NCBI GenBank assembly: GCA_964019425.1
Contig: OZ025795.1
Coordinates: 992,001 to 1,056,000 of the forward strand
Source: Flectonema sp. DT1601
Lineage: Eukaryota
Direction of reading: 5' to 3'
DNA: 64,000 bases
This document shows, piece by piece, positions 39,087-64,000 of this stretch. The notes under the pieces are model-generated. The model had not been told where the DNA came from, searched no databases, and saw only the letters and a program-made list of their open reading frames with translations. The position numbers were made by a program, and so were the translations under genes. Position 1 is the stretch's first letter, and every line of letters begins with the position of its first letter.

Positions 39087-39173
39087 CATAGACAACCAGG
39101 GAAGATTCCAAAGCATAGGATCGAACAGCCTAAGGCTAGTGAACGATCTGATTGTTAGGTGCCCCTAAAACCC

Positions 39174-39694
39174 CTGGGCAGCAAGAAAAGTAGTTGAGTA
39201 CTTCTGGGTGTTTGGCATCACCCCCCATAGTGAGCAAGTACAACAGGTAGCATTGGTAGTCTGTTGATCCTGAGTGATCCCAGCTACAGTTTTGTTTTTC
39301 TTTCTTTTTTTTTTAAGAAGAAGATCAGGACATCCAAGCACTGCTGGATAGTTGCTGAATGCAGGGCCTGCCTGTGGCATTATAATAACAGGCTAAGTCA
39401 TTTGTAGTTCATAGTTTACCTTTGATTTTATAACTTCACACAGGTACTATGAACGATGAGAGATCCAGTGGGATCACTCAGGGTCTAGTAGAGACCACCA
39501 ATGTTGTGCGTTGATAGGCAAGGTGACCAACCTTGACATTCTTTCTTTTCTCCCCTGTTGTGACAAACACAAAATATACACACAGCTTACAGTGTGTTCT
39601 TTGTGTATGTTTTCTTCAGGTGCGAGTAGTTTTTTTTGTTCTTGCTCTTCAGGGAGGGCCTTAGCCAAAAGCTAACAGTCCAAATCTCACCTGG
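39174..39694 (-). mobile_element. Internal fragment of the hAT family found at 49943-53814 (direct repeat of 52380-52899)
   Basis: About 520 bp near-identical to 52380-52899. Both copies give the same track ORF, MPQAGPAFSNYPAVLGCPD. Confidence 0.9.
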
Positions 39695-39699
39695 TAACT

Positions 39700-42115: not shown

Positions 42116-42907
42116 TTTTTTCTTTTTTTATTGTTGGTCCTAGTCAAGACCTTAAACTGACTAACCGGTCTTAATTTTAACTAAGTGAATGAACCCTTCC
42201 CGTTTTCCTTTTCCTTTTCCTTTTCCCTTTATTACTCTCTATCTGGTCTGTTATGTCATAAATCTCATTTAATTTTATCATTCATTTTAATTTTCACTGT
42301 TTCCCATCTACATTTTATTTTCAAATAGTTCCGGTCTGTCTTTAATTTTAAATAAGTATTAAACTAGTCCAACTGATCATGTTAACTCAATTTTTTTTTA
42401 TGTGCAAGAGATACCAACTCACAAGAGATACCAACACACATACGAGATACCAGCACTCCAGAGATACCGACACGCTAGAGATACCAAGTCACTTGAGATA
42501 CCTCCTTGTAAATTAATTCCCGGTATTTAAAATTTGAATTGGTAGTGTCAACTCTGCTTGCTGCTCTTGTTTATGTGTTGTCTCCTGAAAGTGATCTTAA
42601 CTTTAATAAATAAAAAGAATAAAAAAAAAAAAAAAAGAACAAACAATGTTATCATCGTTTTTTTTTTTATCGATCGACTATGTCGATTACTTTCTATTTT
42701 CCGTCCTGGTCAAGACGCTAAACTGATTGTTTTTTTTTTCAAAATTAATAAAAAAGAATATAAAAAAAAAAATAAAAAAAGAATAAACAATGTTATCATT
42801 GTTTTTTTTTTATCGTTCGACTTTGTCGACTAATTTCTATTTTCCATTTTTTTTCTTTAAAAATAAATAAAAAGAATTTAAAATAAAAAAAACGCATTGT
42901 TATCTTC

Positions 42908-43612
42908 TTGGAAGAGTTGATAATAAAAGCCAACAAAAGAAAAGAAAACCTCCCGCCTCCCTCTCAAACTTTTTTAAAAACAGGGGAAAATAAACCCCTA
43001 GAAAGAATTTCTAAAGAGACAGGCGAACTTTCACTAGCGAATGATTGGGTCATCCTCGACGATGTCGGTGATAACCGCCTAATTGTTCCTCTTGAAGTGT
43101 GCCATGTCTCGTCCTCTCTAAGACCAGACATTTTTATTTATTCTTTTTTTGCGAAAAGAGCACTGATTCTGGAGCTGACGTGTCCAAATGAAGATCGTTT
43201 CGAAACCTCTCATGTCTTAAAGGAAAAGAAATACCTAAAGCTAAGAGACTCGATCATCGCTAATGGCTTCGACTGTAACATTTTTACTATTGAAGTTGGC
43301 GTACGAGGAAACATCTGCATGGACCAGCTGAACATCTGGACACGTCACATCGGTTCACCTTTAGCACCAACAAAAGCTTTATTTTGTGAATGCACCAGAA
43401 TCGCCAGACAGTGCTCATATGTTCTGTTCCAGACGAGGAACCTCCCCACGTGGCATTCAAGACCACTTATGCGCAGCATTAAAGAAGAACCTGCCACTGC
43501 AAGTTTTATAAAAGATGGTAAAGAAATCTTCCCTGTGGAAGAAGTCAGAATTTCGATAAAGTGGGAAGTAACGGACTGGGAGCTTTTGGCTCCTGCCCTA
43601 TTCCCGATGTAA
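42908..43612 (+). mobile_element. 5'-truncated HERO-like non-LTR retrotransposon, restriction-like endonuclease region only
   Basis: ANDW..LDD....L.VP......LRPDIFIYS..KRALILELTCPNE.......KEKKY..L.......F......IEVGVRG is a PD-(D/E)xK RLE with HERO-like context. Confidence 0.85.
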
Positions 43613-44492
43613 ACTTTCTTTTTTTTTTTTTTTTTTTTTAACAGGCCCAAAGGGCGACAATGATGGTTGCTGACCAAGGAATAATATTCAAATGAATTTT
43701 CGTTTCAAAGAAACGAACAGAATTAAGAGAGAGGCAGAGAAAAAAGAAAAAAAAAAGAAAGAAAAGAAAAAAAAAAATATGAAGAGGAAATAATCAAACA
43801 TGAAAAAATAAAAAAAAATAAAATAAAATATAAATAAAAAACGTTGTATGAAAAAGGAAAAAAAAGAAAAAGAAAAAAAAAAGACCAGAAAAGGAAAGAG
43901 AAAATGAAAAGGTATAATATTATTGTGGGGATATGAGGATAGCAGGGAAATGCTCTTTTTTTTTTTTTTTTTTTTTTTTTTATTTATTATTTAAAAAAAA
44001 GGAAACAATCAGTTTAGTGTCTCGATCAGGACGGAAAATAGAAAGTGATCGACATAGTCGATCGATAAAAAAACAATGATGAATTTCGATAAAGTGGGAA
44101 GTAACGGACTGGGAGCTTTTGGCTCCTGCCCTATTCCCGATGTAAACTTTCTTTTTATTTTTTATTTTTTTTTAACAGGCCCAAAGGGCGACAATGATGG
44201 TTGCTGACCAAGGAATAATATTCAAATGAATTTTCGTTTCAAAGAAACGAACAGAATTAAGAGAGAGGCAGAGAAAAAAAAAAAAAAAAGAAAGAAAAGA
44301 AAAAAAAAAATATGAAGAGGAAATAATCAAACATGAAAAAAAGAAAAAAAAAAAAAATATATAAATAAAAAACGTTGTATGAAAAAGGAAAAAAAAGAAA
44401 AAAAAAAGACCAGAAAAGGAAAGAGAAAATGAAAAGGTATAATATTATTGTGGGGATATGAGGGATAGCAGGGAGATGCTCTTTTTTTTTTT

Positions 44493-44500
<8 letters not shown>
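43548..44500. repeat. Direct duplication (43548-43980 / 44081-44500) separated by one unit of the AT-rich repeat family
   Basis: Both copies start GAATTTCGATAAAGTGGGAAG and end GATAGCAGGGA.ATGCTC followed by poly-T. Confidence 0.9.
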
Positions 44501-44577
<77 letters not shown>

Positions 44578-45312: not shown

Positions 45313-48300
45313 CTAGCGCCTTCCCCCTTTCGACGAGAAGTCCAGGACCCTTCGCGTTGGATCCCCTTCTCTCTCCCTCATCTCTCCTTGGGTGCTTTTC
45401 TCACTCTGTGACGACGACCTTGTGACCAACTCTACTCCTGCCACACCTTGTCCGTCTCGCTCCGCCGGCTCCGGGCGTACGCCCGCGTCCGTGAACGAGG
45501 TCAGGGAGCCCGGGGGCCCGTGTGCGTACCCCATTGTGTCGGGTGTGTCTCCCTTACCTACCCGACGCAGTGTGGGTTTCCTGTTGTAACTCCGCGGCGC
45601 CTGTTCCCTCGTGGTGCCCTCCACTGGCTCCGGTTCCTTCTGCTTGCGTCTCTTCCTCTTCGCTTTCCTGCTCGGGTCTGGGGAGAGAACCTCTATCCTC
45701 TCCCTCTCTTCTCCCTTCCTGTACCTCCTCCTCGCCTGCCGTTCACCTGAGCTCGGGGTGGACTCTCCCATTTCCGCCTGCAACACCTGCGGACTTGGGT
45801 CCTCCTTTCCGGCCCCCTTTGCCCCCGTCTTTGCCTTCCGGCCTCTCGTGCGTCCCCTTCCCGTATTTGTCTTCGGCGACACACACTCCTCCCTCTCCTC
45901 CTCCATTCCCTTTCTGTACTTCGTCCTCCCTCTCGTGCTCGGTGTCGACACCGTGCCCGGCGATCTCTCTGCGTCTTCCCCGCTCCCGTCACTACCCACT
46001 GCGCGTGGTCCCATCTTCGCCCCCAAACTGGATCTCTCGGCCATTGGTTTTGTTTCGCCTGAGTTCACCAGCTTTGAAAGGGGCTCCGATTGGCCCTCCC
46101 GTCGTGTTTCCGCGTTCCCCCCTTCTGGGTGTAGTCCCAGCATCCAGGCCATCTGACCTGCGTTCCCCTCGGGCGCCGCTCCCTCTTCCCATTCCTGTTC
46201 ATCGACCGTCATGGTCATTTGGGAGTCTGACGATCCCTCCTCCTCTGTGTCTGACTCTGCCACCTGGACCACGTCCTCTGACGTCTCCTCGACGTACTGG
46301 ACTACTGACCCTTCCGTCACATTTTCTCCGTCGACTTCCATCTCCGACTGTGAGTCTTCCAGGTCCTCCAACCCCTCCACTCCGTCCATGCCGTCTGACG
46401 ACGGTGGCTCTCCTGAGTGGTGGGACGTCTCGTCCAGCTCGTCCCCCTTCTCGGCTTGCAGGTCCTCGGCCAGGTGATGGTTTTCGCCTGAGGTCTCTGC
46501 TGCCGACGGGTCTACTGACTGGTCCCTTTCGTCCGTCTGTTCTTCTGCTTCCATGTCCGACGTCCCTGGACTCCCCAAGGAGCCTCCCGACATGGAACCG
46601 TTCCCTTCGTCCTGCCCTGTCGCTGGGGAGGATGATCTATCGTCATCTCCCTCCGACCCTTCCGAGCTCAACTCCAGGACTCCCGCCTCTACCCTTTGCA
46701 CGGCCCCCTTCGGGGTTGGGACCGGGCTCTGCTCGTCTCGGCCCTCTACCCTCGCGTCTTCTCCTTCCACCGACTCTCGGCCGCCTGACGATCCCGTCCC
46801 CTCTTCTGTGTACTGGGGTTCCAGACGCAGTTGTCTTCCCTCCCACCGCACCGTGAAGGGACCCGTCTGTGTCCCGTGTCCCAGGCAGTTCTTTGCCCCC
46901 TCTGTGAAAACCTTCATCACGGCTTCCGTCACTGAGGTCGAGCCCTCCTTCGCCGCTTTTTCAGCCTCCTCCGTCGCGTGTGTTCTCATCCTCTCTGGCA
47001 TCTCCACCAGCGTCGTACGCCTCCCCATCAACTCCGCCTCCTCCAGCACCTCTCTTTGGTCCGTCGACCAGTGTGTCGTGCTTCCTCGCAGCAGCAGGGA
47101 TGCCTCCGCTGGGACGAGGCCTCCACACGCCTTGGCCGCTACCAGCCCCACCAGGGCTGCGAAGTATCGCCCCCAGTGTGTGTCTCCCGCTGGCAGGCCA
47201 GCTGACCATGTGCCCAACACCTCGAAACGGTGTGTGTCCAACCAGCTCGCCGCCGCCCCCAGACGGCCCGTTACCGGGTCTTCCTCGCATGCGTACACCA
47301 AGGTGTACCTCGTCCCTACTTCGCCAACCACCTCCCCCAGCAGGTGGGTTCGGAGGTATCCCTCCGCCTCCCCCTTGCTTGCGAAACTCTTGTGTCTCGC
47401 CGCCGCGTAGCCTGACACCATCGAGTTCGCCTCGTTCCAGCATTGGAACAGGCCTACCGCCCTGCCCCTCGCCACTGCGTACCACTTACGTGGGCTGACT
47501 CCCTCCGTGGCCCGGGTCGGTTCCCTGGTCTCCGGCTGCCACCTCTCTACAAACCTGTCCGCCTCCTTCCTGGAGGAGAAACTCTGGTGTGTCGCATTCG
47601 GGCACCCTTCCGTCTGTGCCTTCGCCTCCTCCCACGATGCATACACTCCCGGTTTCCATCCCACCGCCACCGCATACAGCTTCTCCTCCTTCGACGGGGG
47701 GTCGGGGGATGGGGGCTCTTTTTCCTCGGGTTGTCCCACTTCCTGTGCTGGCTCGTCTCTCAGCCCTACTGCTTCCGCTCCTTGTGCTTCCGTCGTCTGC
47801 GCTTCCACCTGGGCTGGCGCTTCGGCTCGTGGTCTGTCTTCGCCTGATGCCGTCGACCCTCCTGGGAGCGACTGGGATTCATCCGGTTCCGCCGCCTTTC
47901 CCCTCAATTGGGACAGCCCCAGATTCATCTCCAGCTCGATCACCAAGTAGTCGAGCCCGTCCTCCGAGAGTTCCACCGGCTCGTCCCATGCCGCCGATTC
48001 CGCTTCCCAGAGGGCCAGGTTCTCCACCCCTCGTGAGCTTTCCGTCACCTGGTGTTCTATCACCGACGGGAGCGCTACCAACTTCAGCGCCTCCTGCTGC
48101 TCGGCTCCCCACCCCTGCTGCGGTGTGACCACCTCGATCTGTGTCTCACCCCCCAGCAGTTGCGATCTCTCCCTGATCGCGTTGAGCCCTAGCAGCGCTG
48201 CCACGTACTCCGCAGTCGCTTCGTCCCATGTCGGTAGGCAGCCCGACCACGTGAACCTCCTGTCGAGCGTTCCCATGTGTATCAGGCATGCTGCCGCCCC

Positions 48301-49935
48301 CAGCTTCTCCATCTCCGCGTTCCAGACGCTCGATACCAGTAAGAGCAGCTTGCGCTGCGTCTGCCCCCCTACTACTCGCGTCCGGAGGACACACTCCGCC
48401 TCTTCCCTGGACGTGTACCCCGCGGTGTCCTCCTCCGACGGCGGTGCCTCGCGTACCTCCATCCGGTCCTTGTTCGCCACCGGAATCCATCTCACCGGCC
48501 CCCCGACGTCCTCTTGGGTCGATCCCTCCACCCTCGAGTAGACCACTACTACTGGTTTCGTCCCGTGGATCTCCTCTGTCGACACTTGGCTTATTGCCTT
48601 GTCGTCTTGCTTCTGCCAGCCTACTCCGTCCCACGTGTATGACACGTAATGCCCCGCGTTGTCACTCCCGAGGTGTGCGATCGCTCCCGTTTGCTGGTAC
48701 GTCATCACCCTCTCCCCGACCTGCACCTGGAAGCGCTCTTCCCATCCCAAGGACCCTTGCGTGTCCTGCTTGTCTCTCTGGAAGATCAAGGAGCTTGGGA
48801 GCGAGGCGAAACTCTCTTCCAGCGTGGCCTCATTGCTGCCGCACAGCTTCTCGCAGGACCGCTCGACTCTCTCCTTCGTCGGCTGAAGCCTCACTTGTGG
48901 TGTACGGCCACACAGTGGGATCAGCGTCAACTCATCCGTCGATCCGGAGGCGTCCGCACATCCCGTGCAGACCAGCTGTTTCAGCTGTACTGCCGAGAAC
49001 AACGGTTCGCACACCTCTTTCTTCTCCTCCAACAGGGCGTCTACTATGGACGTCAGGGTTCCTACTACCTCCCCCTGCCGCCTGTCTTGTAGCGGGTCGA
49101 ACATCTCGGACAGCTTCTCCAGGCACTCCCCACTCCCTTTGACCACTCCACTCAGGAGGCCCGACATCCCCACTTCCTCCTTCCCCGTCAGCACTTGTGT
49201 CAGTGCCGTGCCCTTCAGCAGGCACTGTACGGACGCGTTGAGGTAGCAGGAGTTCCCGATGTTCGGCAAACCTCTCATCGTCGGGGGCGGTCCTGCCGAC
49301 TGTCGCATTACTTCCGGCTGCTGGATCTCTTCCGTTTCCGCTCTCGGTCTTGGTTCTCTCTCTTGTGATGTCGGCTTCTCCGTCATCTCGGGCGGCGGTT
49401 TCGTCCTTGGCAATGGGTTCACTGAGTCCATCGCCACCGACGCCTCCCTCGCTCTCAGTGCTTCCGCCGTCGCCACTACCACCGATGTCGAGATCCTCCT
49501 CGCCATCTCCCCCGCGATCTCCCGGTGTGGCACCGTCGAGTTCGTTGCGCAGATCTGCACCAACTTCTTCAGGGTCCCCACTGCTTCCCGTCCCATCCCT
49601 CCGTACGCTTCCAGCGCAATTGTCGAGAAATTAATCCCGTGTTTCGTGCACTGCTCCGCGTACTTGTTCCCTTTCAGGGACTCTGCTTCTCTCGCGGCTT
49701 GCCCCGGGGTTTTATACAATTTAATTTTCCCCGGGTTTACCACTGTGATGTCGAAGGCTCTGCCTCTCCCCTCCCTCAGCCCCTCTTGGCAGTACCAGTC
49801 CCCCGGTCTCTGCTTGTTGGGTCCCAGTAGGTGGCTGGGTTCTCTCAGCAGCGGCAATCCCGCCTGCTTAAAGATGGAGATGAACTCCTCCTTCACCCTC
49901 TCGTGTCGCTGGTGCACGTGGCCGTTTTTGATACA
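45313..49935 (-). CDS. Retrotransposon polyprotein, C-terminal part: end of CCHC knuckle, RLE, USP/C19 peptidase, RNase H-like, two RNase H1 hybrid-binding domains, RNase H-like, acidic and basic tails
   Basis: RLE: RHERV...RPGD...AFDITVVNP...K..KY...LEAYGG. USP: GLPNIGNSCYLNASVQCL and HLGSDNAGHYVSY..W.KQDD. HBDs: KLYAVAVGWKPGVYASWEEA and KWYAVARGRAVGLFQCWNEA. Confidence 0.9.
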   Translation of the reverse strand, partial: CIKNGHVHQRHERVKEEFISIFKQAGLPLLREPSHLLGPNKQRPGDWYCQEGLREGRGRAFDITVVNPGKIKLYKTPGQAAREAESLKGNKYAEQCTKHGINFSTIALEAYGGMGREAVGTLKKLVQICATNSTVPHREIAGEMARRISTSVVVATAEALRAREASVAMDSVNPLPRTKPPPEMTEKPTSQEREPRPRAETEEIQQPEVMRQSAGPPPTMRGLPNIGNSCYLNASVQCLLKGTALTQVLTGKEEVGMSGLLSGVVKGSGECLEKLSEMFDPLQDRRQGEVVGTLTSIVDALLEEKKEVCEPLFSAVQLKQLVCTGCADASGSTDELTLIPLCGRTPQVRLQPTKERVERSCEKLCGSNEATLEESFASLPSSLIFQRDKQDTQGSLGWEERFQVQVGERVMTYQQTGAIAHLGSDNAGHYVSYTWDGVGWQKQDDKAISQVSTEEIHGTKPVVVVYSRVEGSTQEDVGGPVRWIPVANKDRMEVREAPPSEEDTAGYTSREEAECVLRTRVVGGQTQRKLLLLVSSVWNAEMEKLGAAACLIHMGTLDRRFTWSGCLPTWDEATAEYVAALLGLNAIRERSQLLGGETQIEVVTPQQGWGAEQQEALKLVALPSVIEHQVTESSRGVENLALWEAESAAWDEPVELSEDGLDYLVIELEMNLGLSQLRGKAAEPDESQSLPGGSTASGEDRPRAEAPAQVEAQTTEAQGAEAVGLRDEPAQEVGQPEEKEPPSPDPPSKEEKLYAVAVGWKPGVYASWEEAKAQTEGCPNATHQSFSSRKEADRFVERWQPETREPTRATEGVSPRKWYAVARGRAVGLFQCWNEANSMVSGYAAARHKSFASKGEAEGYLRTHLLGEVVGEVGTRYTLVYACEEDPVTGRLGAAASWLDTHRFEVLGTWSAGLPAGDTHWGRYFAALVGLVAAKACGGLVPAEASLLLRGSTTHWSTDQREVLEEAELMGRRTTLVEMPERMRTHATEEAEKAAKEGSTSVTEAVMKVFTEGAKNCLGHGTQTGPFTVRWEGRQLRLEPQYTEEGTGSSGGRESVEGEDARVEGRDEQSPVPTPKGAVQRVEAGVLELSSEGSEGDDDRSSSPATGQDEGNGSMSGGSLGSPGTSDMEAEEQTDERDQSVDPSAAETSGENHHLAEDLQAEKGDELDETSHHSGEPPSSDGMDGVEGLEDLEDSQSEMEVDGENVTEGSVVQYVEETSEDVVQVAESDTEEEGSSDSQMTMTVDEQEWEEGAAPEGNAGQMAWMLGLHPEGGNAETRREGQSEPLSKLVNSGETKPMAERSSLGAKMGPRAVGSDGSGEDAERSPGTVSTPSTRGRTKYRKGMEEEREECVSPKTNTGRGRTRGRKAKTGAKGAGKEDPSPQVLQAEMGESTPSSGERQARRRYRKGEERERIEVLSPDPSRKAKRKRRKQKEPEPVEGTTREQAPRSYNRKPTLRRVGKGDTPDTMGYAHGPPGSLTSFTDAGVRPEPAERDGQGVAGVELVTRSSSQSEKSTQGEMREREGDPTRRVLDFSSKGGRR

Positions 49936-49942
49936 GATTGAG

Positions 49943-52900
49943 CATACTTGTGCAAAAAGCTAAAAGCTAAAGCTAAGCTTTTTGGAGCTAAAGCTAAGCT
50001 ATCTAGCTTTTTTTAGCTTTTTTTTTGAAAAAAATTTTTTTTTAAATTTTGGCATGTTTCTGTACTTTTTTGATATTTTTTTTGGTTTTGTGAGGAAAAA
50101 AAGTGTGGAAAAAAAAAAAAATCACCAATTATAATATTTCCAGTATCCACCACTACAGGTTTTTGTGTGTTTTTTGGCTCATTTAAGCTGTTAAGTGACG
50201 TGATTTTTCGATATTTGCGCAACCTGGTATCTACAAAGATAACATTTCATAATTCAACTATGTGTACTGTTGGGAGAGAAATATGTTTTTTTTTTTATAT
50301 GACAGGCAAATTATTACTTATTACAATCAACACTGAGTATGATTTTTCGCTATACTTGCCTTAACACACATTTTCCCTACCTGGATTAAAAAAATGTCAC
50401 TAAAAGGAGGAGATATCCATAAATTCACTAAATAATTATACCACAGAAGTAGTAAAATACAGGAAACAGGCGTTGTTTCCCCTTGCGTTTCAGCAGGAGA
50501 TCTTCAAGTCTCACTGCCCGAACCCAGCAGTCGTACACTGTGTTCCATCGGGTACTGCCTATGCATTTAAGTTGCAGAGGGCTTCCCTTTCGACCCTTCT
50601 GCACCTCAAGGAACAACTCCTTCCTTTTGGGGGTTGCCATCTCCTCTGTCAGATCCTTCACCTTATTGTATGCCGTTGAGAGGAGGGGGATACCATTGAT
50701 GAGATCCTTCATTAACAGCTGCAATGAATGTGCTGCACATCTGATAGTGAGGAGCTTCTCCTTCCCTGCAGCCTGAAGCATCTGCTCTAGAGCATCTGCG
50801 TCAATGCCCTCTGGGTCTTCTTCTCCTGCACTTTCACAAGATGCTGCACTGTCATTGTCAGTGTCTTCTTCAAGACTCTCCATCTCTGTGATGGTTTATT
50901 AAATCTTAGTTTGTAAAATGTTGGGCAGCAGGTAATGTTTGCTTTTTTAGATACATACTAACTGGAAGTGCTGCTTCCTTCAGGGCATTCTGCATGCTCT
51001 TTGCATTGTCAGCACAGAAGGCAAGTGGAACAACATTAGCTTCAAGTAGCTCAGTAGTGATGCTTCGAAGTACCTTCAAGGCATCTGCAGCAGAAAAGCT
51101 AGTAACTACTACACTTCTAAAAAACAGGGCCATATGGCCATTGTGAATACTGAAGTTCAGCACTCGTCGCTTTCCAGGTAGTGTCGCCCCATCAAACATA
51201 ATTGTAACATCATCGCCTTCAAACCGCTTAAGCAACTTCTGACGGCAGGTATTCCCAAGCTTCTCAATGTGGGCAAGCAGACTCCTTCGCGTAACACCTG
51301 CAGGTGCAGACGTAATGCCAGTGAAAGTTGGATCTTCAACCACTTGCAGGGCTATCTTATTTTGGCAGAAGAACACAGCTATTTTGTCCATCATGCTCTG
51401 TTGGTGTGAGACATTGTACAAACACTTGATGTTTCTAAAGAAATTCAATGGTTTACATACCAAGTCTTTTAAAACACACAGATCAGTGGTGGAAGTGCCA
51501 TGTGTTACCCCCAACTCCTTAGGCTTCCCGCTTCCTGGGAGGTTGTGATGACAACGCAAGTGTGCCCGCAGGTTACTTGTTCCAGCGTTTTTCTTCCCTG
51601 AGCCTCCATTCTTCATCCTAATCTCACCGCAAATGTTGCACTTGCCCCTATCCCCATTATCAACAAACCAACCACCCTCACCAAAGAGTGGTCGGTCAGC
51701 CTGTGTTGTCCCAACCTCCAATCCCCCCTCCTTAGCTTCCTGTGGAATTGGCGCAGCTGGTATCTTGGGAAGTACTTCAGGCATGCTCTCTTTCGGCTTA
51801 CTATCAAGGATATTGCGAATCCTCTCCTCCTTTGCATTCCACACCTCAGTTGCATCTCTGCACTTCTGTTCTGCATCATCTACCTCTGCTTTTAGTCGCT
51901 TCACTTCATTTTCCATCTCCCCATGTTCGGATTCAAGTAACCGCTTCTCGTTCTCAATCTCTAGAACCCTTGTTTCTAACTCTGTAACTTTCTCTGAGCT
52001 GCCTGTCTGCAACACATTTGCTAGAGTTGCGTGTGTAATTTGTGCTACCTGCAGTTGAATCCCTTCCGCTAGGGAAGAATGTTGTTTCTTTAGGGCACTG
52101 CACTCATCTTGCAAGCTAAGTAATTCCTTCTCAGCAGCAGTGTTTGACTCCTGCAGTTTCTGCGTTACTGCTTCATGCTCTTCCTGCAGCAGCAACTGCT
52201 CTTCATGCATTGCATCCTGGAATGCCTGGAACTCAGAGTCCCTGTAGCTTTGTTGGGCTACAAGATGGTGTTCTTGCAACTTTTCCACTGCAGTTATACC
52301 ATCGTCAGTAGAAATGTTACTGAATGATGACTGCTCCTTTTGCCAGTTTCCAACTAAGTTTTCTACATCCCCACTACCTCTGGGCAGCAAGAAGGAAAGC
52401 AGTTTAGTACTTCTGGGTGTTTGGCATCACCCCCCATAGTGAGCAAGTACAACAGGTAGCATTGGTAGTCTGTTGATCCTGAGTGATCCCAGCTACAGTT
52501 TTGTTTTTCTTTCTTTTTTTTAGAAGAAAATCAGGACATCCAAGCACTGCTGGATAGTTGCTGAATGCAGGGCCTGCCTGTGGCATTATAATAACAGGCT
52601 AAGTCATTTGTAGTTCATAGTTTACCTTTGATTTTATAACTTCACATAGGTACTATGAACGATGAGAGATCCAGTGGGATCACTCAGGGTCTAGTAGAGA
52701 CCACCAATGTTGTGCGTTGATAGGCAAGGTGACCAACCTTGACATTCTTTCTTTTCTCTCCTGTTGTGACAAACACAAAATACACACACAGCTTACAGTG
52801 TGTTCTTTGTGTATGTTTTCTTCAGGTGTGAGTAGTTTTTTTGTTCTTGCTCTTCAGGGAGGGCCTTAGCCAAAAGCTAACAGTCCAAATCTCACCTGGA

Positions 52901-53814
52901 AATTCAACTCAGTTTCTTAGCTGAGTGACTAAGATGTCGAAAGTGAGAGAGATTCCCCCTGTACACTGTGACTGAATGATAGGGATTTGATGCCAAATCA
53001 GCATCAGAGGGTGGAAATCGAAGGATAGTGGCAGGATCTTGGCGATACATGATACCAACATGCCTGTTATCACCTGATCCTCGGGCTACTTGCACATAGC
53101 CTCTCCATTCCACTATCTTCTTCGCTGCCTCTTTCTTGAATCGCAGAACGATTCGATCATCGACTTGCAAGTCACATGCAAGTTGCTGCAGCTCAGCAGC
53201 CTCAAGTGGAGTTTCAAGAGCATTCATTGTAGGAGATGGATCTGAAAGGAGAAAAAAAACACATTGCAACAGGTTAAGTTACTGTAGTTTGACAGGGAAC
53301 TTTGTAAGACATTTTTTAAGAACCTGGGGGGGGGTAAATTAAGGAGGGGAAATTTGGATTTATGCAGTTTTGACACCTCTTACCTTATATCCTTGCTCTG
53401 TTCACAGATTTAGCTGCTAATATACCAAAAGACCCCAAAAAAACCCAAACAAGACTGGTTACTAGCTTTTTTAATTAAAAAAAATTTTTTTTACTCCCCT
53501 TCAAGTAATTTTTTTTTTTTTTTTTTACATTCTGAGAGAATAATTTTTTTTTCAAAAAATTCAAAAAAAAATGCTTTCAGTGCCTACAGTGCCAGTTTCT
53601 CAATTTTCCACTGCTTTATTTTCAACAACTTTCCATTTTTTTTCTAAAAAAATTCCAAAAAAATACCAAAAATGTCCAAAAATGAGGTATTTTTTGTTTG
53701 AAAATTTTTTTTCAAAAAAGCTAAAAAAAAGCTAAAAAAAGCTAAAAAAAGCTAAATAGCTTTAGCTTAGCTCTAAAAAGCTTAGCTTTAGCTTTAGCTT
53801 TTTGCACAAGTATG
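49943..53814 (-). mobile_element. hAT DNA transposon, 3872 bp, TIRs starting CATACTTGTGCAAAAAGCTAAA, 7-bp TSD GATTGAG
   Basis: Inverted termini of about 60 bp with AGCTA subrepeats. GATTGAG occurs at 49936-49942 and 53815-53821. Confidence 0.95.
50428..53227 (-). pseudogene. Intron-containing hAT transposase (coiled coil, BED finger, D..D, CxxH, RW); C-terminal E and dimerisation region not seen
   Basis: CNIC...GTSNLRAHLRCHH (BED), IMFDG, CADNA, CAAHSLQL and STRWN. The 5' exon structure is unresolved. Confidence 0.8.
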
Positions 53815-56800
53815 GATTGAGGCATGGTATCCCTGCCTATCCTGTGGGCCTGAGCATATCCTGCATACTGCCCCTTCCGCGAACAGCGCTGCGCCCAATC
53901 GCATCCCACATGCGATCCTGAACGTCTCTGGGTCCATCGCGCACTCTTCATCTGCTTGTTGCAGCCATGCGCTCGCCTTATCCATGCGCAGGGAGAGCAG
54001 CCTCCCTTTATCGCGCGGGTCATTCGCCCCCGCCAGCAGGCAGTCTCTCTTGACCTGGTCCAGTTTCGCCGAGGACAGCCTCTGGGGGTTCGGCCCCGGC
54101 CCGTCTTCTTCTATCCTTAGCTCCTCCGGGAGGGCGAGGTTCAACCCCTTCTTCAGTGCTGGCATCAGCATCCCCTTGAACCCCTCCCACAGTGACTTGC
54201 TCACCCCTTGGACTAATTCCAGGGATCCCAATAGTGCTGCTCCCCTGTGCTCTGCACATGACCGCAGCCCCAATCCCCCCATCCGGGTCGGCAGTTGTGC
54301 TTGCATCCACTTTGGCCCCTCCAGTGTCAGGCCCAACACTCGGCTCGCCGTGGACCTCATCAGCTCGTCCACCTTCCGCATCGAGGTGTCCATTTTCCCA
54401 TGCGTGCAGCATCGCATCAGGTGGGTCACCTTGCAGAAGCCCATGCATTGCCTTAGGAGCACCATGGCCACCTGCCGGTCCTGCAGGTCTGCTAGCAGCT
54501 CCGCTTTCTTCTCCAGCTGCGCCACCTTCCTGTCGACGAACTCCTGGCAGTGTTCCTCCGTCCCGAACGGTGCCCCCAGGAAGTCCCCGTTGTACAGTGG
54601 GGGTCTCATCCCTTCCAACCCCCACCCCAAGGGCAGGGTGTTCTGGGCTGAGTCGAGCACGTGCGTCTGGCACTTGTCCGGCCTCAGCGTCAGCCCCAGC
54701 TCCGCCGTCTCCTTCTGCAGGATTTGGAGGGCCTTGTCTACCTGTTCCAGGGTGCCCGCCACCAGCCCATCGTCCAGGTAGAAGCACGCCAACTCCGGCT
54801 TCGCCTCCAACACCTTCTGCAGCGCCGGCTTGATTGCCAACGAGAACAGCAAGGGACCCAACGGATCCCCCTGCTGAGCGCCCTCCTCCGAGCTCAGCCT
54901 CTCGTCCCCAAACAGCAACCACGTCGGCGCTCCGTAACACCAGCTGACCCAGCTCTCCAGCAGGGTATCCCTCGTCGAATCCAGGAACGCCCCCCTCTTC
55001 ACGCAGTTGAAGGCGTTCGAGAAGTCTATCTTCACGAACACTTTCTGTGACGAGAGCGCGTGCTCCGCGCGGAACTCATGCAGGGTGTGCACCGCCGCCT
55101 CCACTCCCCCCGACACCGCTACTCCTAGCTGTCTCACTTCTAGCAACGAGCTCCTCGCCTGGGACCTGTATGCCCCGCACAGGATCTTCGCCACCAGCCG
55201 CCTCCATGTTTCCCCCACCGCGACTGGCCGGTGCTCCCCCGGCTTCCCTTCTTTCTCCAGCGCCGTCAGGTTCGCCCCCGCCAGCAGCGGCGCTACTTCC
55301 CGCGGCGCCCTCCCGTTCGCCAGAATCCTCACCACCTCCGTGATCGAGGCTACCAGCCCCGGCACCTCACCCCGCTCCACCACGTCCTTCAGGTGTTGCG
55401 GCGCGAGGCCCGAAGGCCCTCCACTCGACCCCCTGTGGAAGGAGCGTAGGCATGCTAGCAGCTCCACCTCTGCTATCTGCACCTCCTGCCCTGCCGTGGC
55501 CGATGGGGGTCCGCTCGCCCTCGGGTGTAGGGTGCGCATCTGCTCCAGCACCTTCTCGGTTCGTTCTGCTGGCGGCGGCGCGTCTAGGGCCGAGATCGCC
55601 TGTGACAGGCAACCCTCCCTCGCTAGCGACGTGGCCCTGTCGTTCCTTCCTTTTTGCCCCGCCTCTTTCACTGCTGGCCTTCCCGTCGCCTTGCGGGGGG
55701 CCGCCGCTTTCCACAGTCCCTCAAATTCCCCCCGAATCCATGCTTGCAGGTCGTCGACCGCCCCTGTCAGATCGCTGGTCGACAACCTCCTACCCCCCCT
55801 CCGTATCCTCCGCAGTGTACATGTCGGGAGCATCAAGAGCAGCTTCCATGCCCACTCATCGTTCCGCTCCACGACTAGGTCGAGCGACAGCTTGAGTGCT
55901 CGCCCCAGATGATGCAACAGGGACACCGGCAGCTTCTTCGCTATCGGCCTCCTCCTGCTGGCTATTTCCTCCAAAGAGGGGAAGCTCTGGCTCTCCAGCA
56001 CCCGCTTCCGGAACGCCGTGTACACGTCCCCCAGTTGGACCTTCTGCAGTTTCTCACTGCACCCCGGATGCATCGGCTGGTCCTGCCCGATGATCCCACA
56101 GCACACCGGACATTCCCGGAGGCCTAGCCTCGCCAACTGTCCATGCGTCAGCGGGTTGCCACTGAATGCGTGCTCGTCCACGTGTCTTAGGAGCTCCGCC
56201 CACTCCTCGAAGCCTCCCTTGTGTTTCGGGCACTCCGCTTGGGGGCACTCGTGCAGCTGGGCCTGTCGGGAGGCTGTCTGCAGCACTGCCGGCTCGCCTC
56301 CTGCTGCTTGCGACAGCGGGCCTGGCGACACTAGCTCCAACCTCCGGGCGCTCTGTAGCAGCCGCGCGACGCAGTCCTCGGATGCCTCCACTGGGTCGTA
56401 GTGACACCCGTTCTGCAGGGTCAAGACCAGCGTCTGCTTCGGGTCCGATGGCCCTTCCACCACCAGCGTTTCCGTCCTCACCACGACGACGAAGCGGCAC
56501 TGTAGGTCCTCTGCCATGACCTGTAGGGCCAACGCATCGCCCCAGCATCCATCCTCTTCTAACGCCCTCGCATATACTCCGAATGCGTCCGCGTCCTGGA
56601 AGAAGACCTCGAACCTTTCCCTGTTCTTGGTCAGGTACCCTGCCGTTCTCCTGCGGAGCTCTCCATGTCTGCCCTTCCACCCCTCTGGCGTCTCTAGGAG
56701 TTGGCACACACTCCTGAACAGGCAATTCCCATCCCCAATCACCCGAAATACTTTTGCTCCCTCGCACTTCAGGCTTGCCAGTTCCGGCGCGGGTCCCGTC

Positions 56801-57714
56801 GCTACCCCCAGCCGTCCCTTGAGGTCCAACATCTCCCGACACCTCACTGTCTGGTGCACCAATCCGGTACTCAGCTCCCCGCAGGCCTTGCAGATCTGCT
56901 TTCCGAGTCTGTCGGAAGCCATCTGGGCCGTTACCTCCCCCGGTACCACTCCCTTCAGGTGTTGTTTGAAGTGGTACTCTAGGTCACCCCTCACCCAGAC
57001 GCTGCACCCCACCACCGGGCACTTCGTCCTCTCCTTGCTTTGCCCTCCTCCTGCCAGGTCTGACGGCCTCGCATACCATGGTCTGGGCTCCGCCTTGTGC
57101 CCTCCTGGCTTTGTCCAGTCCCTTTCGGGCCCTGCCCGTCGCTTCTTCGGTGTCTCCGCCTTGTTCTTCCTTGGCCTCTCTGTCTCCGCGCGGAATCTCT
57201 CTCGCCTGGCGTGGAACTTCTCCAACTCTCCCGCCCACCGCTCCCACCTCTCCTGCCGTTCCTTCAGCAGCTTCCTCCTCCTCCTTTCCAGCCGCCTTGC
57301 CGCCTTGGACGCCACTTTCGGGGACGCCCTCTTCAGGAGCTCCCTTCCTCCCTTGTCTGGAGGTGGCTTTGGGTGGTCTCGCCTCACCCGGTTCCCGGCC
57401 GTTTCCGTTCCCCTCCGCGGGACCCACACCCCCTCCCGTCCATGTTGGAAAGCGCGTCCGCTTGCCGTATTGTTGGGGCTGTTTGAGCTGTTGGGGGTTA
57501 CAAATGGGTGCGGGGGGATCGGGCGTGTTACGCGTCGGCTGATGCGCGATGAAAACAGTGGGCCTTTGTCCAGCGTTGTGAATAGAGGGGTGTGCCATCC
57601 GCCTGGCACTGGGGCTAACCTCTGCTTACCCACTCCGGACGTCTGTTGCGCCCTCGTTCCACTTAGTAGTGCCCACAGCAGCACGTACCCACACAGTAAC
57701 ATTGTTTTCTCCAT
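53815..57714 (-). CDS. Retrotransposon polyprotein, N-terminal part: hydrophobic leader, Zn fingers, OTU protease, Zn fingers, reverse transcriptase, start of CCHC knuckle
   Basis: Zn fingers CPVVGC..HFKQH and CPQAEC..HVDEH. OTU: IGDGNCLFRS..WGD..HYD. RT: RPVAVGE.WRRL, KIDFSNAFN, GAQQGDPLGPLLF, FYLDDG and QLP.RMGGLGL. Confidence 0.93.
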
Positions 57715-58777: not shown

Positions 58778-59020
58778 CCTCTTTCTTCCTTAGTATTTTC
58801 TAAATAAACAACGACAAGTAATACCAAATTCTTCTAAATAAATATGACCTAATTAATATATATAATAAACAATAAAATAAAATTTTTTTTTCAACAATAT
58901 ACTTTGGCGCAGTGGTTTTTGTCACCGTCTGTCTTCTGGTCCACCTGGGTTCAATACCCTGTGGGGGTCGGGGGGCGACGGGGGCGACTTCTGCGACTTA
59001 AAAGACTTTAAAGCGCTAAG

Positions 59021-60092: not shown

Positions 60093-60431
60093 CTAGTCGT
60101 CGTCTTCTTCGTTACCTGAGCATGACCGTGTTAGGCTCCCTGTTCCTACTCTCCTCTTGTTTCCAAACACTTGCTTCCGCAGCCTACCTCTATTACTCCG
60201 CCGTCTCACCAGCTCTCTCGCAAAGTTCCCTAATGTCTTCGAACCCGACGACGACGCGTCTGTACTACTCAGATACAGAAGGTCCCGGTCAGCTCCAGCC
60301 GGTCCCTTCCGCGCCTTGTCATGGGCTCTCCTTCTCTTCGTCTTCGTCTTTTTCGCCTCCTTGGCGAGTTTGGCTTTCAGCGCGGCCAGATCACAGCATT
60401 GGTCGAAGTCGCATTTGCTACAGTTTACCAT
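60093..60431 (-). CDS. Possible small basic protein with an N-terminal Cys cluster
   Basis: 112-aa ATG ORF (CSKC..CC, K/R-rich). No recognised homology. Confidence 0.3.
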   Translation of the reverse strand: MVNCSKCDFDQCCDLAALKAKLAKEAKKTKTKRRRAHDKARKGPAGADRDLLYLSSTDASSSGSKTLGNFARELVRRRSNRGRLRKQVFGNKRRVGTGSLTRSCSGNEEDDD

Positions 60432-60678
60432 TTTCTTATTTATTATTTAAAAAAAGGAAACAATCAGTTTAGCGTCTCGATCAGGACGGAAAATAGAAAG
60501 TAATCGACATAGTTGATCGATAGAAAAAAAACAATGATAACATTGTTTATTCTTTTTTTTTTTTTTGGGAAAACCTACAGATCCACCCCCAGGTTTGGAG
60601 AAACGTACACTACGGTCACGGCCTTGTGTAGCATTTTCGACCCCAGAAGATTAAATAAAAAAAAACTTTTTTTGCATG

Positions 60679-60757
60679 TCACCACTGGTTTAGTGGTAGA
60701 TCTTTGGACTTGCATTCGCCAGGCTGCAGGTTCGAATCCGTGTCGGTCGTTTTTTTT
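60679..60757 (+). promoter_or_regulatory. tRNA-like Pol III unit (A box, B box, T-run) inside the left MULE end
   Basis: TGGTTTAGTGG ... GGTTCGAATCC ... TTTTTTTT. No paired acceptor stem. Confidence 0.65.
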
Positions 60758-60989
60758 CCCCCCCCCTTTTTTTTGCTTCCACGTCATGTGATTTAACTGA
60801 GAACGATGCGGTGAATATCGACCAGACAGTAGACTACACAAACTACACAATCTTGACACAAACAGAGAGGAAGGGTTGTGTGTGCTTCCATAAAAACACA
60901 CAGTCTACAAAAAAGACATGCACGTTTTAAATCAAAACGTGAACAAAAAAGATAAAAGCTAGTAGTTAAATGTACAAAGGAGCCAGTGA

Positions 60990-62792
60990 TTATCTGATGG
61001 AATCGGGATTGCTTGAAGATGATGATGTCGACATGTCACGCTTCTTCCTCTTCCCTACAATGCGGGAAGCTCCTTCCGAAGGACCGTAGCGACAACTACG
61101 GCTGTTGTGCCCATGCCTTCTACACTTGCCACATTTATTCGGTATTGTCTCACCTGCACTGCGGATGCGAGTCTTCTTCGGCCTGCCTACACCCTTCCTC
61201 ACTTCAGGTGGTAGTGTTCCATCAGATGTGGTGTCATGCGCGGGTTCAGGCTTCAGTGTGAGTTGATAGAGGCTGTCATAGGAAGTTGTCCACAGGTATG
61301 CTGGGCACACACGGCTGTCTGTCAATGTGTTTATATCCAGGTGCGCTGCAACTCTCAGAATATGCATGCAAGGCAGGTTGTAGCGCCTGTAACTTGGACA
61401 GCTACATGTAAAGGGATGCCCTTCCTTCACAACAGAACCTGTTTGGGGTTGGTTTGGCTTGCCAACTTCAAACTCACCGTCTTCGAGGCTTGTGACTTGA
61501 TACGTGAAAGCCACAGTTTCCTCACGTATCTTTTGCTCGATCGGTGGGATCGGTCTGTTGGTTGAGGTTTGTTCGGAGAATGCACCTCGCCTCTCCGCGA
61601 GCTTGTCGGTCAACCACCTTCGAGTCTGCTGGATCAGAGTTAAAACTGACCCCTCGCGTGCCGGCTTCAGCAAAGAGTTTATGCTTTCCACGGCGTTGCT
61701 GGTGTAGGTATCACACCTCGCAACATCATCTGGCCAGTAAGCATCTGCCCATCGCTTCATATCGGTGTTCTTGAGGTACCGATGGGCCTTCTTCCCGTGT
61801 TGCTGCTTAACATCCTTCAGCACCTCCACCACCTTCGTGCTGTCCGCCTTCGCCAGTTCCCACACTGTTTTTGTGGCTTCTTGCTTCGTCAGGCTAGTCT
61901 CCACAGCAACATTCTTAACCAGGTGGTTAATACAAATAGCGTGGTGGCGAATGGTGTCGTCCAACGACGTGTCGGACTCCAGTCCCTTCTGCCTGTCGGA
62001 GAACAGTGTAAATCGGGATAGTCGATTTCCATACACAGCCAGTATTTTTCTGTTGTGGAGTGTCCACGACTGCAAGTCCTCCGACGCGGATATTGTGAAC
62101 CCCAATGGCAGGAGCTTCCTGTTGGCGTCCAGACCCAGGGTCACTAGTAACACACCGCGAAATGACCCATAAAGGCCACATGCGTCAGAGAAGATTACCG
62201 GTAGCAGGTAATCAATTGCCACAGGTGGCAGAAACGCCCAGAAGCAGCTGGCGAAAACCAAATCCCTGCGTCGTTCAATGGAGAATGTCATCTCCGGATT
62301 TTTTTCTTTTAGGGCTTCGAAGTATGATTGGAGCTGCCCATACTCCGACCCTCGCTTTCCATACACCTTCTCCTTCGCTATCGTTAACCCCTTTTCCACG
62401 GTGCCTTTCTTCACCGGAATATCCCTGAAGCTCTTCAGGTCAACTGCAGCGGCTTTAGGCCCGTAGTCTGGAAAACTACGCACCTTTTCCTCCAGCACCG
62501 ATGCCACCCACTCTGCTACTCCATCCCCTTCTCTGTTGCACAAGCCAGGGGAACATGTGTGAGCTTTCACCTCCCTCACCTGGAGCTCACCTTCCTTGAC
62601 TACCGCCTTCACAACATACAAGCAGTCTTCTTCATTCTTGCATACCAGGGTGGTTCGGTTGCGATCACTCCTTTTCACCCTGAAGGTGTGGCCGTGCGTT
62701 GTTGACCACTCAAATACCCTGGCCTTCAGCGCTATGACGGTGGCAAACACTTCACCTTCCGACACCTGCAGTTGTGCAACGTTGTTGTTCAT
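60990..62792 (-). CDS. MuDR/MULE transposase (600 aa, apparently intact)
   Basis: N-terminal C..C..HTC, FSDACGL, FSDRQKGL, CINH, TSNAVESIN, SWIM (CSC......LPCMH) and a C-terminal CGKC...GHN...C knuckle. Confidence 0.95.
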   Translation of the reverse strand: MNNNVAQLQVSEGEVFATVIALKARVFEWSTTHGHTFRVKRSDRNRTTLVCKNEEDCLYVVKAVVKEGELQVREVKAHTCSPGLCNREGDGVAEWVASVLEEKVRSFPDYGPKAAAVDLKSFRDIPVKKGTVEKGLTIAKEKVYGKRGSEYGQLQSYFEALKEKNPEMTFSIERRRDLVFASCFWAFLPPVAIDYLLPVIFSDACGLYGSFRGVLLVTLGLDANRKLLPLGFTISASEDLQSWTLHNRKILAVYGNRLSRFTLFSDRQKGLESDTSLDDTIRHHAICINHLVKNVAVETSLTKQEATKTVWELAKADSTKVVEVLKDVKQQHGKKAHRYLKNTDMKRWADAYWPDDVARCDTYTSNAVESINSLLKPAREGSVLTLIQQTRRWLTDKLAERRGAFSEQTSTNRPIPPIEQKIREETVAFTYQVTSLEDGEFEVGKPNQPQTGSVVKEGHPFTCSCPSYRRYNLPCMHILRVAAHLDINTLTDSRVCPAYLWTTSYDSLYQLTLKPEPAHDTTSDGTLPPEVRKGVGRPKKTRIRSAGETIPNKCGKCRRHGHNSRSCRYGPSEGASRIVGKRKKRDMSTSSSSSNPDSIR

Positions 62793-62887
62793 TTGAAACT
62801 TAAGGATTAATAACTAACGGGGGGTTAAAAAAAAAAATGACGCAACCGGGACTCGAACCGACGCAGCTGGAAAAAAATTGAGCGGGG

Positions 62888-62966
62888 AAAAAAGTACCCC
62901 CGGGGGATTCGAACCCGCGACCCCCCGAATGTCAACCCGCTACCAACACCACTGTGCTATCCCGGA
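62888..62966 (-). promoter_or_regulatory. tRNA-like Pol III unit inside the right MULE end (extra B box near 62850)
   Basis: Minus strand TAGCACAGTGG ... GGTTCGAATCC ... TTTTTT. A second GGTTCGAGTCC plus T-run lies further inward. Confidence 0.65.
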
Positions 62967-63081
62967 TTTCAAAAAATCGGCGCTCGGAATAGAGGGGCAA
63001 AGATTTTTGACACGAGCTTCACAAGGCCGTGACCGTAGTATACGTTTCTCCAAACCTGGGGGTGGATCTGTAGGTTTGCCC

Positions 63082-63478
63082 TTTTTTTTTTTTTTTTTTT
63101 CTTTATTTTTTAAAGAAAAAACAATCAGTTTAGCATCTTGACCAGGACGGAAAATTGTAAGTAATCGACATTGTTTATTCTTTTTTTTTTATTTATTTTA
63201 AATTCTTTTTATTTATTTTTTAAAGAAAAAAAAAACGGAAAATAGAAATTAGTCGACAAAGTCGAACGATAAAAAAAAAAACAATGATAACATTGTTTAT
63301 TCTTTTTTTTGTATTTTTTTTATATTCTTTTTTATTAATTTTGAAAAAAAAAACAATCAGTTTAGCGTCTTGACCAGGACGGAAAATAGAAAGTAATCGA
63401 CATAGTCGATCGATAAAAAAACAATGATAACATTGTTTATTCTTTTTTTTTTATTTTAAATTCTTTTTATTTATTTTT
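63082..63478. repeat. AT-rich repeat array (AACAATCAGTTTAGCGTCTTGACCAGGACGGAAAATAGAAAGTAATCGACATAGTCGATCG...), also at 43981-44080, 60438-60566 and inverted at 42606-42890
   Basis: Direct sequence comparison of the copies. Confidence 0.88.
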
Positions 63479-64000
63479 GGGAAAACCCCTAATTCCACAA
63501 AAATAGTTTGCGAAATCGCCAACTCATCACAAAAATTTTAACCACTCGAAACAACCCAACATGACGGGAAAGTTTTCAGAATTTTCGGAGCTCCGGTGGT
63601 CTACTGGTTATGACCGCCGAATCATGACCCGGAGGTCTCGGGTTCGAACCCCGTGACATCCTTTTTTCTCTTTTTCGTAATGACGGAAAATGTGACCAAA
63701 ACATAGTCAAAGGGCGGATTGATCACCTACTGGTCGAGTTGAGACATATTCCCGTTGCAATAAATCACCAAGACCCCTCCCGTGTGATCGATCACTTTAA
63801 AATGTTACTGTGCAGTTCACCAGTGAGACTAAGACCTCCAACCAAAATTCACCAGACTTCAAGCAGCATTCCAAATTAGGTAATTTTTGTCAGGCATATT
63901 CGAACCATCGACAACAGAAATTCTCACGTTAGTAAAAGCCTTTAGAAATGTGGCTTAACGATCCTCATCATCGATTTAGGTTCGTGACTCAGAAGCCTTC
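63479..64000. mobile_element. Probable terminus of a second MULE-like element, with a tRNA-like unit at 63590-63667
   Basis: Begins GGGAAAACC after a T run in the same repeat family. Contains A box TGGTCTACTGG, B box GGTTCGAACCC and a T-run. The other end lies outside the window. Confidence 0.55.

Follow-up and report, generated by a model that had tools for sequence, protein, structure and literature searches.

Pol III promoters in mobile DNA are known from elements copied through RNA, where transcription is the very purpose. In tRNA-derived SINEs, a tRNA head is followed by an unrelated body and an A-rich or repeat tail. Among the Mutator-like DNA transposons (MULEs), which generate target site duplications of 8 to 11 bp and whose transposases are marked by a CxxH motif, Pack-MULEs are non-autonomous and carry host fragments between their repeats. 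Cassandra and Ajax are LTR retrotransposons with 5S Pol III promoters, which are copied through RNA and gain from transcription (PMC7215508 and PMC10946416, excerpts). Trypanosomatids possess TFIIIC, which binds their tRNA and U2 loci (PMC10781861), and the DNA upstream is the target of their tRNA-like A/B elements, which lack a cloverleaf and possibly work by opening chromatin (PMC4950102, excerpt); in T. brucei, tRNA genes show a nucleosome-depleted region directly upstream (PMC5359979, excerpt). An element that moves by cut and paste has no need for its ends to be copied into RNA; here we describe one with tRNA-derived A/B boxes near both of them.

The window, i.e., the whole 64-kb stretch of DNA that we analyzed, likely comes from a diplonemid, and 10 of its 11 long ORFs lie on one strand, which fits the polycistronic Pol II transcription that the sequence-only reading had supposed. 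Positions 60567-63081 (minus strand) hold a Mutator-like transposon of 2,515 bp with an intact transposase, recognized by its inverted repeats, open transposase frame, and Pfam matches. The whole element appears intact. Its terminal inverted repeats of 66 bp (60567-60632, plus, and 63016-63081, minus) are 95% complementary and fall within the MULE range of 14 to 500 bp (PMC6446971, excerpt), and the terminal 10-mer starts with GGG and is near-palindromic. The flanking T14 (60553-60566) and T19 (63082-63100, both on the plus strand) are compatible with a target site duplication, which is unreadable in such tracts. The transposase gene (60990-62792, minus) is co-oriented with the host genes and encodes 600 amino acids, comprising a MuDR-type N-terminal domain, a SWIM finger, and a C-terminal zinc knuckle. 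The residues D203/D266/E369, C287xxH290, and W348 are invariant or nearly so across 18 sequences (alignment A3). The Pfam SWIM profile scores above its cut-off, whereas the MULE and MuDR profiles remain below theirs (24.8 bits against 27.6 and 21.5 against 25); a sister transposase, P0007, clears the MULE cut-off at 28.5. The protein falls in a separate clade with 40-44% identity to sister families and about 25% to the next relatives, and five cluster members on contigs of four different lengths, one differing by 2 residues, attest to dispersed copies at the protein level; the protein clusters of three MULE families amount to about 17 loci. A search of solved structures returned nothing useful, and a broader alignment of 18 proteins held no stretch conserved enough for scanning.

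A further terminus at 63479-63544 (plus) likely belongs to a related MULE family, judging from the sequence of its end, with the remainder of that element lying beyond the window. Its first 66 nt resemble the inverted repeat (z = 3.9, with 0 of 500 shuffles as high), and it too has a palindromic terminal 10-mer. This terminus is not present in a paralogous flank near 42.6 kb, and the interior of the element matched none of 172 transposases except one at E = 0.005.

Each of these three ends is followed by an inward-facing unit of A box, B box, and oligo-T, located exactly where the sequence-only reading had placed it. The left cassette (60667-60774, plus) comprises a T7 run (60667-60673), an A box (60686-60696), a B box (60729-60739), and two T8 terminators (60750-60757 and 60767-60774). 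The right cassette (62871-62976, minus) has T6 at 62976-62971, the A box at 62959-62949, the B box at 62915-62905, and terminators of T6 (62893-62888) and T7 (62877-62871). In the third (63582-63675, plus), T4 at 63582-63585 precedes the A box (63597-63607) and B box (63641-63651), followed by T6 (63662-63667) and T5 (63671-63675). Counted from the first base of the terminus, the A box starts after 119, 122, and 118 bp in the left, right, and third cassettes, respectively, again as claimed earlier, and the A-to-B distances are 43, 44, and 44. The spacer between the inverted repeat and the A box is kept in length and not in sequence (z of -0.8 to 0.9). Every A box has a T-run ending 11-12 nt 5' of it, for which the background is about 2% per site, and every B box has one starting 11-12 nt 3' of it, against a background of about 0.8% per site; in all three cassettes this latter run, the terminator, is followed by a second T-run. 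A second B box on the minus strand (62859-62849) stands without a matching A box at tRNA spacing and is followed by T11 (62837-62827), a run that may double as the pyrimidine tract used in trans-splicing the transposase mRNA. This box with its T11, the T-runs before the A boxes, the doubled terminators, and the resemblance of the third terminus to the inverted repeat are additions to the earlier description.

Across both strands of the 64 kb, a strict B-box pattern has 5 matches in 4 places, the B box of the third cassette being palindromic, and all of them lie at transposon ends; in 200 dinucleotide shuffles the pattern occurred 0.155 times on average and at most twice. The combined A and B pattern has 4 matches in the window as against none in 200 shuffles, the fourth, at 58905, lying outside the element and having no element ends. 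Elsewhere in the window, a hAT-like element is without a cassette of this kind, and hence the module is dispensable for some DNA transposons here.

The cassettes are tRNA-derived. They combine A and B boxes at tRNA spacing with a terminator after position 72/73, and a tRNA signature is retained between the boxes of all three (p = 0.004, 0.0002, and 0.0012); the letters at the anticodon position are TGC, GAC, and CAT in the left, right, and third cassettes. Their stems, on the other hand, pair at chance level, and the fold is lost: 26 of 57 non-box stem pairs are formed against 24.7 expected from composition (P = 0.41), that is, 9/19, 9/19, and 8/19 per cassette, as against 16-19 of 19 in real viral tRNAs selected for such pairing (89 kept of 120). 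The acceptor stems, already reported as lacking, retain 4/7, 2/7, and 1/7 pairs in the left, right, and third cassettes, and the other stems are broken as well. ARAGORN finds no tRNA gene in the 64-kb window, and the Rfam tRNA model gives 12 bits for the third cassette (cut-off of 29), with no tRNA match listed for the left and right ones; we therefore reject functional tRNA genes. A shared RNA fold is likewise rejected on the stem pairing and on predicted folds, which are not cloverleaves.

The cassettes might be neutral passengers that began as tRNA genes or as SINE heads, were captured a single time in the fashion of Pack-MULEs, and are now decaying, with their shared position left over from an older, longer inverted repeat. 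MULEs do capture host DNA and have repeats of 14-500 bp (PMC6446971, excerpt); further, the left end bears a weak resemblance to the right one between the boxes (z = 2.8) and over the 60 nt after them (z = 3.2, mostly T/C runs), and few ends are sampled. Short direct repeats also surround two of the cassettes, a 9-nt T-rich word on the left and a 7-nt word around the third. These words, however, are built on T-runs or are no longer than chance allows, and no such word surrounds the right cassette. Moreover, a T-run begins right after position 72/73 in all three, with no body or A-rich tail, so that SINE insertion, the independent origin that the earlier reading had named as a way to refute selection, is rejected; within the 64-kb window there are no SINE-like copies outside the transposon. 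The identity between the boxes (39/93) falls between models of one and of several captures, and the acceptor-side flanks (13/51 identical) reject a single ancestor with uniform decay of up to 0.35 (P <= 0.005).

What speaks most directly against passengers is that neutral decay does not yield near-perfect boxes beside random stems. The boxes depart from the consensus at 1 of 54 positions over the three cassettes. In pairwise comparisons of these three ends, two of which come from one element, identity is 18/22 in the boxes versus 17/48 outside, 19/22 versus 15/48, and 16/22 versus 20/48 (Fisher p = 3e-4, 2e-5, and 0.015), such statistics being fair only for the second and third cassettes, as the units were first picked by their boxes. 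The other refuting outcome that had been named, boxes no more conserved than their flanks, was thus not seen at these ends. We also simulated neutral decay at a uniform rate from viral, mostly phage, tRNAs, fitting it to the inner stems and the signature, both of which are matched by rates of 0.25-0.30. At these rates a single cassette keeps its boxes so intact in 1.6-3.6% of trials and all three do in 0 of 4,000, with the simulation misfitting the acceptor arms (7/21 paired, P <= 0.007). On these grounds we regard the passenger account as rather improbable. Almost perfect boxes together with stems at chance level indicate that selection appears to act on promoter DNA and not on RNA. The earlier suggestion of selection for TFIIIC binding thus stands as far as the boxes are concerned, on box-versus-flank identity and simulation over three ends; that TFIIIC is the factor bound is our inference.

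The cassettes had further been read as either a promoter or an insulator. As a promoter, the right cassette would serve the transposase, by Pol III read-through or Pol II entry, giving a pre-mRNA capped by trans-splicing and hence expression wherever the element lands. It is indeed sense to and 5' of the gene, with the extra B box; MULE repeats are known to carry transposase promoters (PMC6446971, excerpt), diplonemid mRNAs receive a spliced leader (PMC10161547), and T-runs of five or more are absent from the coding strand. That absence, however, is unremarkable at 20% T and is shared by a reverse-transcriptase ORF, while the T6, T7, and T11 runs intervene between the right B box and the start codon, the antisense left cassette is left unexplained, and the gene already lies on the strand of the host genes. 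We accordingly disfavor this part of the earlier suggestion and give it little probability.

Its insulator half we retain as a rival, if an unlikely one: TFIIIC at both ends would form a chromatin barrier or transcription boundary that shields the transposase gene from silent chromatin or host transcription. The same box conservation and the symmetric placement agree with this, and in such a role the additional B box at 62859 would not require an A box. In T. brucei, a tRNA gene is often associated with Pol II termination (PMC5359979, excerpt), and human tRNA genes figure as insulators in the title of a cited work. But a barrier has no obvious need for a fixed distance to the terminus or for an inward direction, and with the element on the host strand a Pol II stop would cut off both its likely mRNA source and the downstream host genes.

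The geometry of the cassettes fits chromatin opening over the repeats better than a promoter or an insulator. We therefore propose, tentatively and at somewhat under an even chance, that they are docking sites for TFIIIC, through which nucleosomes are kept off each inverted repeat so that the transposase can reach it. The decayed tRNA gene near each terminus retains both boxes, the distance between them, and its T-run terminators; TFIIIC would bind the boxes and load TFIIIB upstream, toward the inverted repeat. Because the two cassettes point inward and sit at a constant offset, the nucleosome-poor zone upstream of each would cover part of the 66-bp repeat at either end. Any Pol III transcript would be halted by the doubled T-runs at about 85 nt, so that convergent cassettes would make no double-stranded RNA across the transposase gene; RNAi genes are present in the diplonemid D. 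papillatum (PMC10161547). The transposase mRNA itself would likely arise from host read-through and trans-splicing.

A different use of the same fixed distance would be an outward transcript that begins roughly 105 bp from box A, at a point some 14-18 nt inside the terminus, runs across the end into the flanking DNA, and thereby marks or opens the cut site. In trypanosomatids, box A of tRNA-like elements lies 104-106 bp from the start of the divergent snRNA gene that they drive, nearly invariant in position and varied in sequence (PMC4950102, excerpt), and at each of the three ends the corresponding position is within the inverted repeat. Against this, Rfam gives no credible match for a small-RNA gene 104-106 bp from box A, the product would consist of some 15 element bases and variable flank, ending at once in T19 on the right, and the geometry comes from kinetoplastids rather than diplonemids. 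Hence, we consider such a transcript very unlikely.

Searches in other DNA yielded no further family members: related loci were confirmed in 0 of 32 stretches of viral contigs, in 0 of 42 prokaryote genome loci, and in 5 of 181 from metagenomes, these five being 24-29% identical, outside the family, and devoid of the strict B box. The inverted-repeat pattern had no match in prokaryote genomes, and the single match of the terminus-plus-cassette pattern in viral contigs is an ordinary tRNA-Asn. The legible parts of the D. papillatum supplementary text make no mention of MULE or tRNA-like elements.

In comparison with known systems, the element shares with the MULE superfamily (PMC6446971 and PMC5499845, excerpts) its inverted repeats, a GGG-starting near-palindromic 10-mer as in Muta1, and DDE, CxxH, W, and SWIM in one ORF, and differs in the subterminal tRNA-derived A/B cassettes at both ends; the term tRNA does not occur in the MULE survey (PMC6446971), and the published literature searched gave no DNA transposon with a module of this kind. 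With tRNA-derived SINEs it shares a tRNA-derived A/B head inside mobile DNA, and with Pack-MULE cargo (PMC5499845, excerpt) a host fragment inside a MULE. It is itself no Pack-MULE, its transposase being intact; it is autonomous, without SINE body, tail, or consistent target site duplication, and three different tRNA-like sequences recur at one offset. The trypanosomatid snRNA promoters (PMC4950102, excerpt) likewise belong to a euglenozoan host and have kept the A/B boxes, lost the cloverleaf, and end in a T-tract stop, with box A at a fixed distance from an upstream feature. There, that feature is an snRNA gene, 104-106 bp to its start, whereas here it is a transposon end at 118-122 bp, with a putative function.

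If the proposed role is true, the cassettes would represent a novel cis-acting component of a DNA transposon, bearing on how such elements live in genomes with polycistronic transcription, and such ends may inflate counts of tRNA pseudogenes. More generally, it is possible, though on balance doubtful, that cut-and-paste transposons enlist the host Pol III machinery by capturing tRNA genes, reducing them to their A/B boxes, and keeping these at a constant distance from each inverted repeat, with TFIIIC/TFIIIB opening and perhaps pairing the ends; unrelated superfamilies would have arrived at this strategy repeatedly, with the diplonemid MULE clade as one example. Cassandra and Ajax (PMC7215508 and PMC10946416, excerpts) also have a host Pol III promoter in both terminal regions with conserved motifs. 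In contrast to them, the element described here is cut-and-paste DNA with tRNA-type boxes that are convergent and terminated at once, and selected boxes at the ends of such an element point to another use, most likely chromatin control at the cut sites.

Inverted repeats of 66 bp, 95% complementary to each other, delimit a Mutator-like element (MULE) at 60567-63081, whose sole ORF codes for a 600-aa transposase on the minus strand (60990-62792). The transposase matches the MuDR, MULE, and SWIM models of Pfam, of which only SWIM scores above the curated cut-off; the cut-off of the MULE profile is passed by a sister protein. In an alignment of 18 proteins, its residues D203, D266, E369, C287/H290, and W348 are conserved. 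The assignment as a MULE rests on the repeats and the transposase, following the relevant portions of PMC6446971 and PMC5499845. The element is flanked by T14 and T19, which renders the target duplication unreadable. In protein clusters, the transposase family has 5 members on at least 4 contigs, one member differing by 2 residues, alongside two sister families (44% and 40% identity to the transposase; 9 and 8 members, respectively); the named relatives are plant proteins of ~25% identity. Small repeats of the window encode the peptides in which truncated members of one sister family terminate, and hence that family derives from the same or a very near genome. The small repeats fall into two families, of ~445 bp (43548-43992 and 44081-44518) and ~540 bp (39170-39706 and 52376-52911), both of which appear to break up sister MULE copies elsewhere.

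A third terminus, at 63479, is similar to the inverted repeat across 66 nt (z = 3.9) and is missing from a paralogous flank near 42.6 kb; it is likely to be a related MULE end, although the sequence inside it matched none of 172 transposases apart from a single hit at E = 0.005. A repeat family that is AT-rich and contains internal tandem units (60430-60566, 63082-63478, 42605-42892, and 43954-44080) may be a retroelement 3' tail. Its T-tracts house both the MULE and the third terminus, which hints at a poly-T target preference.

The sequence-only reading had placed an inward-facing cassette of A box, B box, and T-run about 120 bp inside each of the three ends, and these offsets are borne out: the A boxes start 119, 122, and 118 bases past the first base of the left MULE end, the right MULE end, and the third terminus. 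The A-to-B box distances are 43, 44, and 44 bases, and T6-T8 runs begin 11-12 nt past each B box. The search used the familiar A and B box consensus patterns. The Leishmania boxes quoted in PMC4950102 agree with them. The placement of boxes at the ends is well above chance: the strict B-box pattern occurs 5 times in the window, each time at one of these ends, whereas 200 shuffles gave a mean of 0.155. For the A+B pattern, 4 matches in the window compare with 0 in 200 shuffles. The fourth match (58905-58958, plus strand) has tRNA spacing, with 0 mismatches in the A box and 1 in the B box; it lacks a T-run, a tRNA signature between the boxes, and a nearby transposon end, and lies back to back with the upstream region of the reverse-transcriptase element described below. 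Further, in all three cassettes a T-run ends 11-12 nt ahead of the A box and the terminator is followed by another T-run, and the right MULE end has an additional B box with T11.

No A+B unit was found in a hAT-like element at 49943-53814, and the module is therefore not general to the DNA transposons of the window. This element has inverted repeats of ~82 nt, a flanking 7-nt direct repeat, and an ORF (50906-52210) with BED and DUF659 matches, both under cut-off. It appears to interrupt an OTU-plus-reverse-transcriptase non-LTR ORF (53794-57714) that likely resumes at 49259-49963. Together with a 1,427-aa minus-strand ORF (45313-49596) combining a ubiquitin hydrolase (UCH) domain with two RNase H1 N-terminal domains, the OTU-plus-reverse-transcriptase ORF likely constitutes one non-LTR retroelement with two deubiquitinase-like domains.

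The cassettes were rejected as tRNA genes: ARAGORN reports none in the window, no cassette exceeds 12 bits with the Rfam tRNA model (cut-off, 29), and none folds into a cloverleaf. Under tRNA numbering, 26 of the 57 non-box stem pairs (19 per cassette) are able to form, with 24.7 expected by composition. We scored the inter-box stretches on a position profile built on tRNAs of viral contigs (244 loci, reduced to 120 distinct ones with matching spacing and then to the 89 in which 16 or more of the 19 pairs form). All three outscore their own shuffles (p = 0.004, 0.0002, and 0.0012), and the cassettes are therefore tRNA-derived; the stretch in the unit at 58905 scores no better than its shuffles (p = 0.67).

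In a decay simulation that randomly mutated real tRNAs (viral stand-ins), rates of 0.25-0.30 match both the profile score and the pairing of the inner stems. At these rates, boxes as well kept as those observed (1 consensus mismatch in 54 positions) arise for a single cassette in 1.6-3.6% of trials and for all three in 0 of 4,000; discounting the first cassette as box-picked, the remaining two give roughly 1 in 1,000. Box positions are also pairwise more similar than non-box positions across the three ends (p = 3e-4, 2e-5, and 0.015), and the spacer between repeat and A box is kept in length, not in sequence. The earlier suggestion of selection, drawn from fixed position and divergent sequence, thus gains from box conservation and the simulation, and is tempered by acceptor arms eroded beyond the prediction of a simulation that uses viral tRNAs and covers three ends only. 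The inter-box identity of the cassettes, 39 of 93, falls between what a single capture and what several captures would predict. Overall, the pattern stands well above chance, and its best interpretation is that Pol III promoter boxes under selection form part of the MULE ends; that the cassettes are passengers we regard as quite unlikely.

TFIIIC is the known reader of A and B boxes. The retention of the boxes alongside loss of the fold points to a role at the DNA level. Trypanosomatids possess TFIIIC, which binds the U2 promoter as well as tRNA genes (PMC10781861), and a nucleosome-depleted region lies immediately upstream of the tRNA genes of T. brucei (PMC5359979). A tRNA-like element of Leishmania that does not form a cloverleaf, its box A at an almost constant 104 bp, regulates the gene located behind it, for which the authors suggest open chromatin (PMC4950102). 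By analogy, TFIIIC would read the cassette boxes, and the upstream nucleosome-depleted zone of an inward-facing cassette 120 bp in would overlie the inverted repeat at each end, opening the repeats for the transposase. Because of this placement, we tentatively favor end-opening, a proposal reaching beyond the sequence statistics that is plausible, if short of probable. Pairing of the MULE ends is also thinkable, as some T. brucei tRNA loci contact one another (PMC11666725). A barrier function, by comparison, is unlikely.

The host is likely a diplonemid, as the best named match of the MCM4 in the window is that of Diplonema papillatum (59%), a species whose genes form unidirectional clusters and which possesses trans-splicing, genes for RNAi, and MULE-like ORFs (PMC10161547). 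The minus strand carries 10 of the 11 ATG-started ORFs of at least 400 aa, and the transposase too; it also encodes a large protein of secreted appearance that contains near-identical ~200-aa repeats (1-5727). The right cassette might serve as promoter of the transposase, or the inward-facing cassettes might drive an outward transcript; both options strike us as equally improbable.

A literature search at the level of titles and abstract openings, mainly in openly accessible journals, showed no report of DNA transposons with boxes of the tRNA type or other Pol III boxes, and the Pangu paper (PMC4482050) does not mention tRNA. Pol III promoters inside mobile elements have been described for SINEs, Cassandra, and Ajax (PMC10946416 and PMC7215508), and in the available portion of a review table the only DNA transposon is Pokey, which carries an rDNA spacer (PMC10946416).
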